Origin: Escherichia coli
GTDB taxonomy: Bacteria; Pseudomonadota; Gammaproteobacteria; Enterobacterales; Enterobacteriaceae
Length of the DNA stretch: 8,395 nt
NCBI RefSeq assembly: GCF_003334815.1
Contig: NZ_QOWO01000065.1
Direction: 5' to 3' (one strand)
Shown: positions 5,612 to 7,686 of the stretch, one piece after another
Layout: each line of letters begins with the position of its first letter
Position numbering within the stretch: the stretch's first letter is position 1
The notes under the pieces: model-generated
The model's input: only the letters and a program-made list of their open reading frames with translations
The model's database searches: none
Told to the model about the DNA's origin: nothing
Position numbers and translations under genes: made by a program

Positions 5612-5919
5612 TCGGTATCTCCGCTTTTTTCTCTTCTTTGTTCCTGTTGCCTTTCTCGTTTTATTTCCCTTTTTAGGGGTTCTACGCCGGAACCGCCGAA
5701 ATTTCCGGCCTGTGATTTTTAGTGGTCCTTCGGTACTTCAATAACTCCATCAGCTATCCCCTGAGCAAGTCGTTCCATCCATTTCGCAAACCGAAAATAC
5801 CCGGGGTATTGCAGGAAGATGTAATCCATCTCGAGTAGGCAGCCTGGCGGCTGCGGCTTGTCATAGCCTGGAATTACCGTTATAAAAAAAGATAATGTCA
5901 TTGTCTTTCAGGTAGTTAT

Positions 5920-6285
5920 ATGGCCCGTTCAGCTAAACCCCGTAAACGCAAACCCGCACCACAAAGAAGCAAACTTCCCCGCTATGTTGTGAAACTTCAT
6001 CCGGATGATTTTTTTGACGAAGAAGACGCTGAAGTTCTGCACTTTGATAATTTTGACGATGCCGTTGAGTGCTGCGCTGACCTGGGTATTCCGTTCTTTC
6101 TGGATGCAGGAAACAAAAAGCTGGTCTTCTGGTTTGTTCGTGTCGATGACGAAGGGTATCCGGAAATAGCCCGCTGTACGGAGCGGGAGTTTGCAACCAT
6201 TCTTGCCGGTATCAGTGCCGGTGGTATGTACTGCCCGGAATGCGGCACAGTTCACTGGCCGGATGGCGTTACCCCACCCGTCTGA
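5920..6285 (+). CDS. IS91-type small accessory ORF (ORF121-like), function unknown
   Basis: Exactly 121 codons, basic N-terminus (MARSAKPRKRKPAPQRSK), directly upstream of and overlapping the IS91-family transposase gene by 46 bp in a different frame. Assignment rests on position and size; I cannot recall the IS91 ORF121 sequence for direct comparison. Confidence 0.55.
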   Translation: MARSAKPRKRKPAPQRSKLPRYVVKLHPDDFFDEEDAEVLHFDNFDDAVECCADLGIPFFLDAGNKKLVFWFVRVDDEGYPEIARCTEREFATILAGISAGGMYCPECGTVHWPDGVTPPV

Positions 6286-7370
6286 TGCTTCCCCGTTTTG
6301 CCGATATTTTTCAGCAGGGTAACCGCTGGCTTAACTGGCTGGAGAAACAGCCGGAAGGTTCAGTGCGTCCGGTGGTGACTGAGTCAGTGACAAAAATCAT
6401 GGCATGCGGGACCACGCTGATGGGCTACACGCAATGGTGCTGTTCATCACCGGACTGTTGCCACACAAAAAAGGTCTGCTTCCGGTGTAAAAGTCGCTCC
6501 TGCCCGCACTGCGGAGTGAAGGCTGGCGCACAGTGGATACAGTATCTGCTGAGTCTGGTCCCCGACTGCCCGTGGCAGCATATTGTGTTCACACTTCCCT
6601 GCCAGTACTGGCCCCTGGTGTTCCACAACAGGTGGTTACTGGCAGAGATGAGCCGCATTGCTGCGGATGTGATACTGGAAATCTGCCGCCAGGCAGATGT
6701 GGAGCCGGGGATATTCACGGTGATCCACACATGGGGGCGTGACCAGCAGTGGCATCCGCATATTCATTTATCGACAACTGCCGGTGGTGTGACGTCGGGC
6801 CACACCTGGAAAAATCTTCATTTTTACGCCCGTAAGGTGATGAGCATGTGGCGTTACCGGATAACGCGGCTACTGTCCCGGAAATACCCGGAGCTGGTAA
6901 TACCGGATGAACTGGCAGTGGAAGGAAACAGCAAACGGGACTGGAATCGCTTCCTGGACACGCATTACCGCCGCGGCTGGAATGTCAACATATCCAGGGT
7001 GATGGATAACGCCACACATGTGGCGGTGTACTTCGGCTCTTACCTGAAAAAGCCACCGGTGCCGATGAGTCGGCTGGAACATTATGCCGGTCAGGATGAA
7101 ATCGGTCTGCGTTACAACAGTCACCGTACAAAACGGGAAGAATACCTGTTGATGAGTGGAGATGAGTTCATGGAAAGGTTCTCCTGGCATGTAGCAGATA
7201 AGGGGTTCCGTATGGTGAGGTACTACGGTTTCCTGAGTCCGGTGAAGCGCCGCTTACTGGAAGAAGTTGTGTACGTCATAACGGAGACGGTGAGAAAAAC
7301 GGCGATGCAAATCAGGTGGAGAGGGATGTATCAGAGGTTACCGACTGGCAGAGCTGGTCCTGATGCATGA
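6240..7370 (+). CDS. tnpA: IS91-family transposase (HUH endonuclease, Y2 class, rolling-circle)
   Basis: N-terminal Cys-rich zinc-binding region (..CFRCKSRSCPHCG..), HUH motif (WHPHIHL), paired-tyrosine motif (VAVYFGSYLKK, Y-x3-Y) and a downstream VRYYGFLS segment, all characteristic of IS91/IS801/IS1294/ISCR transposases. 376 aa from the first ATG; the frame is closed upstream by a stop at 6147. The C-terminus may be slightly shorter than in canonical family members (not verifiable here). Confidence 0.8.
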   Translation: MRHSSLAGWRYPTRLMLPRFADIFQQGNRWLNWLEKQPEGSVRPVVTESVTKIMACGTTLMGYTQWCCSSPDCCHTKKVCFRCKSRSCPHCGVKAGAQWIQYLLSLVPDCPWQHIVFTLPCQYWPLVFHNRWLLAEMSRIAADVILEICRQADVEPGIFTVIHTWGRDQQWHPHIHLSTTAGGVTSGHTWKNLHFYARKVMSMWRYRITRLLSRKYPELVIPDELAVEGNSKRDWNRFLDTHYRRGWNVNISRVMDNATHVAVYFGSYLKKPPVPMSRLEHYAGQDEIGLRYNSHRTKREEYLLMSGDEFMERFSWHVADKGFRMVRYYGFLSPVKRRLLEEVVYVITETVRKTAMQIRWRGMYQRLPTGRAGPDA

Positions 7371-7686
7371 GCGACTGGCACGACAGCAGGTGTGCGGCTG
7401 AGAGCCGCAGAGGGGAAGTTGCGTCCATTTTACCGGAAACGGAGCAAAAAACCGCCATTCATACCCTGTATCAATCAGTGTCATCCTGTTTAATAGTCGT
7501 TTCCGCTCATATGGTGCACAAGGGGTGTTGAAGAAACATCCGTTTTGTGGTGCTTTTTTAGTCTTTTGGGGATTTAAATTCCTATCGATCGAGAAACACC
7601 TGTCTTCGGCAATCGCCTGCGCACGTCTGGTGGCCAGCTCATCATTATTTATGGTTATTGCATCTCCTTATATCCGGACAGCCCCT

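Follow-up and report, generated by a model that had tools for sequence, protein, structure and literature searches.

The locus under study lies in the accessory region of an Escherichia coli IncFII plasmid, in a stretch of 8,395 nucleotides that was analysed at its full length and is here called the window, whose best relatives are NZ_CP074882.1 and NZ_AP045059.1. The feature at 5831-7589 is IS91 in its canonical form, the element that typifies the family of HUH/Y2 rolling-circle insertion sequences named after it, and very probably a defective copy. It comprises orf121 and a tnpA pseudogene between a terIS end upstream and an oriIS end downstream, each of which cuts a different plasmid gene (Table 1).

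Table 1. Features of the IS91 locus in the window (a slash marks the insertion point in an empty site).
Feature	Position	Strand	Basis
Truncated plasmid gene (PGAP 'arylsulfatase, partial') cut by terIS end	5670..5830	-	empty site CCATCT/GAAC
terIS cleavage tetranucleotide CTCG; first base belongs to the flank and varies between copies	5830..5833	+	copy comparison
IS91 copy, 1759 bp (1830 bp minus 71-bp internal deletion)	5831..7589	+	12 copies in different flanks
terIS subterminal palindrome GCAGCC-TGGC-GGCTGC	5839..5854	+	bottom-strand DNA fold, z = -2.8
orf121, intact, 121 aa (WP_000124093.1)	5920..6285	+	120/121 identical to Orf121 of full IS91 copies
tnpA pseudogene: residues 1-352 native, 9 out-of-frame residues, stop 7368-7370	6285..7370	+	alignment to intact copy
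71-bp deletion junction between two GGTTAC direct repeats	7335..7342	+	alignments
Inner oriIS imperfect palindrome GGGGTGTT-GAAGA-AACATCC	7522..7541	+	
Outer oriIS palindrome GGGGATTTAAATTCC	7568..7582	+	
oriIS target tetranucleotide CGAG, 5'-CTCG on the transposed bottom strand	7590..7593	+	copy comparison
3'-5' exonuclease gene, N-terminal fragment, cut by oriIS end	7590..7683	-	empty site TCCTTT/CGAGAAAC

IS91 and its one-ended transposition have been in the literature since the 1990s. The element was re-examined in 2026 (PMC13181058), and the present copy was compared with it and with its family. By megablast, a 2-kb query around IS91 found matches in about 1,590 of 5,426 complete E. coli genomes, typically at 99% identity, and 87% of the matched places were plasmid-borne. 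The transposase matched the NCBIfam model NF033538 (transpos_IS91) with 277 bits against a cutoff of 125 (E 1.6e-82), and it carries the N-terminal zinc-binding domain (Zn_Tnp_IS91, PF14319, 1.5e-18) and the Y2/HUH catalytic domain (Y2_Tnp, PF04986, 7.2e-39) that characterise the family, with H159/H161 and Y249/Y253, invariant in the family alignment, retained. The other traits of the family were also found: the two ends differ in sequence and hairpin content, there are no terminal inverted repeats, no target site is duplicated (left flank ...CCATC versus right flank CGAGAAAC), and oriIS abuts one of the family's target tetranucleotides (5'-CTTG or GTTC, rarely CTCG), here CGAG at 7590-7593. 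Regarding IS91 proper, which is marked by a one-base overlap of orf121 onto tnpA and by at least 95% nucleotide identity, the orf121 TGA overlaps the tnpA ATG at 6285 (TGATG, 6283-6287), the arrangement given for IS91 (PMC13181058), and identity is about 99%. Against WP_000937614.1, annotated as 'IS91-like element IS91', TnpA is identical at 347 of 350 residues, the comparison being one with annotated copies. A full-length transposase with a C-terminal P-x2-C-x2-C, likewise expected of a family member, was not found, residues 353-395 being gone. Hence, the element belongs to the IS91 family by descent, but as a pseudogene. A sequence-only reading of the same DNA had proposed an IS91-family element with an ORF121-like gene and an HUH/Y2 transposase, and in this it had recognised a known element correctly at the family level, as the nucleotide identity, the domain matches and Orf121 bear out.

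The frame of the transposase, whose integrity that reading had left to be checked, is broken. In relation to the same-site IS91 copy of NZ_AP045059.1, 71 bp are deleted after 7335, which frameshifts tnpA and removes the last 43 residues (353-395) with the P-x2-C-x2-C motif, while 89% of the gene is kept. In an alignment of 32 family members extending down to 25% identity, P357 is invariant, and at least 90% of the sequences have C360 and C363. The identical copy of NZ_CP074882.1 is labelled 'IS91 family transposase, frameshifted' by PGAP. A sequence search of the PDB with intact TnpA returned only marginal matches to parvovirus NS1, an HUH protein, and thus no structure by which to judge the C-terminus. 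Since the frame is lost after residue 352, the copy is most likely unable to move alone, and the loss of conserved residues strongly argues that the truncated TnpA would be inactive.

The ends were defined from 12 IS91 copies in unrelated flanks, among them colicin K, IS186, IS200 and the genes for a PAPS reductase, an MFS protein and a symporter. All 12 start with TCGAGTAGG (window 5831; the start is also given as TCGAGTAGGCAGCC) and end with CCTATCGAT (window 7589), so that an intact IS91 measures 1830 bp, with an ambiguity of 1 nt because a T is present at both ends. In NZ_CP122623.1 (L009, 1343-6830), three IS91 copies lie head to tail with a period of 1829 bp and one T shared per joint, the multimer signature that failed rolling-circle termination would leave. 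The ends previously proposed, 5680 and 7522, consequently lie 151 bp and 67 bp, respectively, to the left of the true ones. The former was rejected as a true left end since 5670-5830 derives from an unrelated plasmid gene, a fragment that about 170 further records contain without IS91. The CAAG at 7519-7522 that had been taken for the target lies inside the element, 67 bp from its end, and matched by chance, because CAAG or GAAC occurs about once per 168 bp in the window; the stretch at 7455-7518 that had been likened to an oriIS is also internal IS91 sequence, upstream of both subterminal oriIS palindromes (7522-7541 and 7568-7582). Both of the findings that the sequence-only reading had itself named as speaking against it, namely ends located elsewhere and a frameshifted or truncated transposase, were therefore made.

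Its GAAC/CAAG target preference is seen beyond the right end of other copies, but the window copy has CGAG in this place. On the transposed bottom strand, GAAC, CAAG and CGAG read 5'-GTTC, 5'-CTTG and 5'-CTCG, respectively; the first two are the main targets, whereas CTCG accounts for 1-4% of experimental insertions and ranks third among the targets of natural isoforms (PMC13181058). CTCG is also the predominant terIS site (PMC13181058). The terIS end and its hairpin are intact, as are both oriIS palindromes and orf121. Additionally, the top strand of 5831-7589 contains 12 GTTC, two CTTG and no CTCG, versus two GAAC, a single CAAG and one CGAG, the last being the terIS site itself, an asymmetry by which the bottom, transposed strand of IS91 largely avoids its own cleavage sites. 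An Rfam scan of the whole window found no family, and a sigma-70 consensus scan of 5750-7700 gave no match under a strict rule, so no promoter is claimed.

The two junctions of the element are not a matched pair and do not correspond to a single simple insertion. Without the insertion, the left gene reads CCATCT/GAACTTTTGAGG (records L012 and L014) and the exonuclease gene TCCTTT/CGAGAAAC (L009, L010 and L011). Because the empty left allele has GAAC to its right, IS91 was first inserted there, at a canonical target; the present partner of the oriIS end is another genuine target, the CGAG inside the exonuclease gene. An old terIS flank combined with a new oriIS target indicates that a later event re-joined the oriIS end while the terIS flank was kept. 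The complete sibling plasmid contains neither the missing half of the left gene nor that of the exonuclease region. These hybrid junctions would follow in one step from a deletion made by TnpA between oriIS and a new same-strand target, or from recombination of two IS91 copies in direct repeat, and in two steps from one-ended transposition out of another replicon with subsequent loss of the far end. The junction presumed to be ancestral, in which GAACTTTTGAGG follows oriIS, was absent from the E. coli genomes, and in PLSDB only chance partial matches of 37 nt were obtained. The reciprocal junction, with terIS after the exonuclease remainder (...GACGTCCTTT), was matched once, by L021, which was rejected as an ancestor because its backbone is only 80% identical, and which is thus an independent use of the same CGAG site by IS91.

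Altogether, five independent IS91 insertions were observed in or beside the exonuclease/yacB/yacA/repA region of IncFII-type plasmids (window 7590-8395; L009, L010, L011 and L021). In all of them oriIS points toward repA, and two occupy the homologous CGAG on backbones only 80% identical, which suggests that the exonuclease/repA region of IncFII-type plasmids is a strand-specific hot spot for IS91.

To the left of the element, an 88-aa ORF with a signal peptide (4933-5199, minus strand, WP_032342288.1; within 4597-5670) is surrounded by 182-bp direct repeats (4712-4893 and 5433-5614, 93% identical, with a 35-nt palindrome in each). The block of ORF and repeats is confined to 2 of 5,426 E. coli genomes, on which count the repeats were rejected as a common E. 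coli repeat. Further left, a two-partner secretion pair (297-3326, minus strand), formed by a TpsB-like POTRA protein (577 aa) together with a TPS-domain protein (413 aa), lies directly against a truncated tssB/tssC remnant of the plasmid type (3630-4669); at the level of megablast the pair was found in one other E. coli record only and not in PLSDB. In the tssB region, window 3860-4353 (494 bp) stands against 6460-6754 (295 bp) of the sibling plasmid L002, the segment having been replaced or deleted. NZ_CP074882.1 (L001) shares window 4597-8395 and carries, in place of the T6SS remnant and the secretion module, a microcin B17-type TOMM cluster (L001 978-6113), the junction of which falls at window 4597.

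As to direction, the sequence-only reading had replication proceed from the end downstream of tnpA, with possible read-through past the upstream end, and this was confirmed: in the other copies, GAAC or CAAG is found only beyond the end downstream of tnpA, and oriIS is the initiating end while terIS lies upstream of orf121, failed termination mobilising the DNA that adjoins terIS (PMC13181058). In assays, one-ended transposition represented 11-53% and could carry the whole donor plasmid; Orf121 is an inhibitor of transposition that reduces the one-ended form 1.5- to 2.9-fold, and trans-complementation of IS91 derivatives is an experimental fact (PMC13181058). Trans-mobilisation of the window copy is, on this basis, possible in principle: an intact IS91 elsewhere in the cell could supply TnpA, and such a helper may be present outside the window, elsewhere in the source genome. 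Replication would then proceed leftward from 7589, left-flank DNA would be taken along if termination at 5831 failed, and the intact Orf121 would reduce both transposition and read-through.

The 71-bp deletion is not restricted to this plasmid. Using a 56-nt probe across the deletion junction, the deleted isoform was detected in 108 of 5,426 E. coli genomes (2%), at 109 places of which 108 were on plasmids, with a median of one and a maximum of two per genome among the 108, as would be expected of a copy that does not multiply. It occupies at least three insertion sites, adjoining CGAG (window), GAAC (L010) and CAAG (L015-L017), and is found on different SNP backgrounds, L010 being visibly mosaic. 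The sibling plasmid NZ_AP045059.1 has the same junctions as the window and an intact tnpA, and therefore the deletion is either recent in the window or was exchanged by recombination. Since all of these sites bear proper target tetranucleotides, the deleted form may still be mobile, by itself or in trans; its distribution may be due to trans-mobilisation, to recombination among IS91 copies, or to recurrent deletion or gene conversion. Two mini-IS91s were also encountered, one of 267 bp in NZ_CP127851.1 (L010 3670-3936; 107 bp of terIS and 160 bp of oriIS) and one of 329 bp in NZ_CM165893.1 (L018 3949-4277), both adjoining GAAC or CAAG and presumably moved in trans as non-autonomous elements. 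As they keep both ends and no working transposase, they depend on TnpA in trans, as the window copy probably does, although the latter, unlike them, keeps orf121 and most of tnpA.

Relative to the type element (X17114; 1830 bp; orf121 and tnpA), the window copy, which is about 99% identical to annotated 'IS91-like element IS91' copies, shares the ends, the terIS hairpin with CTCG, the two oriIS palindromes, the orf121 overlap and the lack of a target duplication. It differs in the deletion within the 3' part of tnpA, in having the minor target 5'-CTCG and not CTTG or GTTC beside oriIS, and in flanks that come from two different genes. IS1294, IS1294b, IS801 and the ISCR elements, the members of the family known for one-ended transposition, resemble IS91 in a transposase with zinc finger, HUH, Y2 and C-terminal CxxC, in oriIS-to-terIS polarity and in the capture of DNA past terIS. 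However, they have no orf121, their terIS site is GTTC, and they are distant in sequence, the aligned family members being about 25-40% identical.

Whether the copy is, or was, a vehicle for its neighbours has to be weighed against these observations. It is improbable that TnpA, cut down to 352 native residues, retains its activity and that the deleted element is a functional isoform. The HUH motif and Y249/Y253 are kept and each of the three or more sites has a proper target tetranucleotide, but the residues lost (P357, C360 and C363) are family-conserved, and the 108 genomes typically hold a single deleted copy, as against up to 23 places per genome for the 2-kb IS91 query. Moreover, recombination among IS91 copies, to which the mosaic SNPs of L010 attest, could spread the deletion with no transposition involved, and the mini-IS91s are a sign of trans-mobilisation. 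Less credible still is an active IS91 that would now be spreading the small gene, the T6SS remnant and the two-partner secretion module by one-ended transposition, even with the read-through direction correct, terIS and oriIS intact and the assay frequencies and cargo sizes as high as reported. This reading has against it a frameshifted tnpA devoid of the conserved C-terminal residues and an intact orf121 that lowers one-ended transposition, as well as the distribution of the cargo. A search of other genomes for this IS91 linked to variable lengths of the left flank had been proposed as a check, and no such linkage at another oriIS junction was found in 5,426 E. coli genomes and 72,556 plasmids. 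The left flank beside IS91 (5560-5830; small gene 4840-5320) was found in two other records only, both with the same oriIS junction as the window, and these relatives diverge from each other further left, at 4597. This breakpoint, taken between the window and NZ_CP074882.1, was rejected as an end of one-ended transposition, having no CGAG, CAAG or GAAC and the same oriIS junction in both. The two-partner secretion module itself was found in 1 of 5,426 E. coli genomes and in 0 of 72,556 PLSDB plasmids at megablast sensitivity. Consequently, the role of IS91 as a spreader of the adjacent secretion genes is unsupported, no evidence of co-mobilisation having emerged from either collection.

A past event is a distinct matter. 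In one version, one-ended transposition brought IS91 and its left flank from another replicon into the exonuclease CGAG on the IncFII backbone, and the far end was lost later. The terIS junction is of the donor type, with GAAC to the right of the empty site, the oriIS junction is a genuine second target, and IS91 used that same target independently in L021. Nevertheless, the other half of the exonuclease gene is missing from the whole sibling plasmid, which calls for a second deletion; a donor in which GAACTTTTGAGG comes after IS91 turned up neither in the E. coli genomes nor in PLSDB; and a single oriIS-adjacent deletion or IS91-IS91 recombination gives the same structure in one step. This history is judged unlikely because it requires two steps against one and because its ancestral structure is present in neither collection. 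A somewhat broader proposal, quite unlikely as a whole, holds that the mismatched junctions are the fossil of a real TnpA-mediated event and, in its stronger version, that one-ended transposition imported the block of small gene, T6SS remnant and two-partner secretion module into the IncFII backbone, the deleted IS91, given its three or more sites and its presence in 2% of E. coli genomes, then possibly being a recurrent or trans-mobilised non-autonomous lineage. If true, it would offer a natural, datable case of IS91 one-ended transposition moving virulence-type genes.

Under the preferred reading of a known but defective IS91, the practical outcome is a corrected pair of ends, 5831-7589, and a pseudogene call for tnpA, with little import beyond annotation, and the copy should not be put forward as a proven vehicle of the neighbouring secretion genes. 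The hybrid junctions and the wide occurrence of the isoform with the 71-bp deletion add small points of natural history to the dynamics of IS91 on IncF plasmids.
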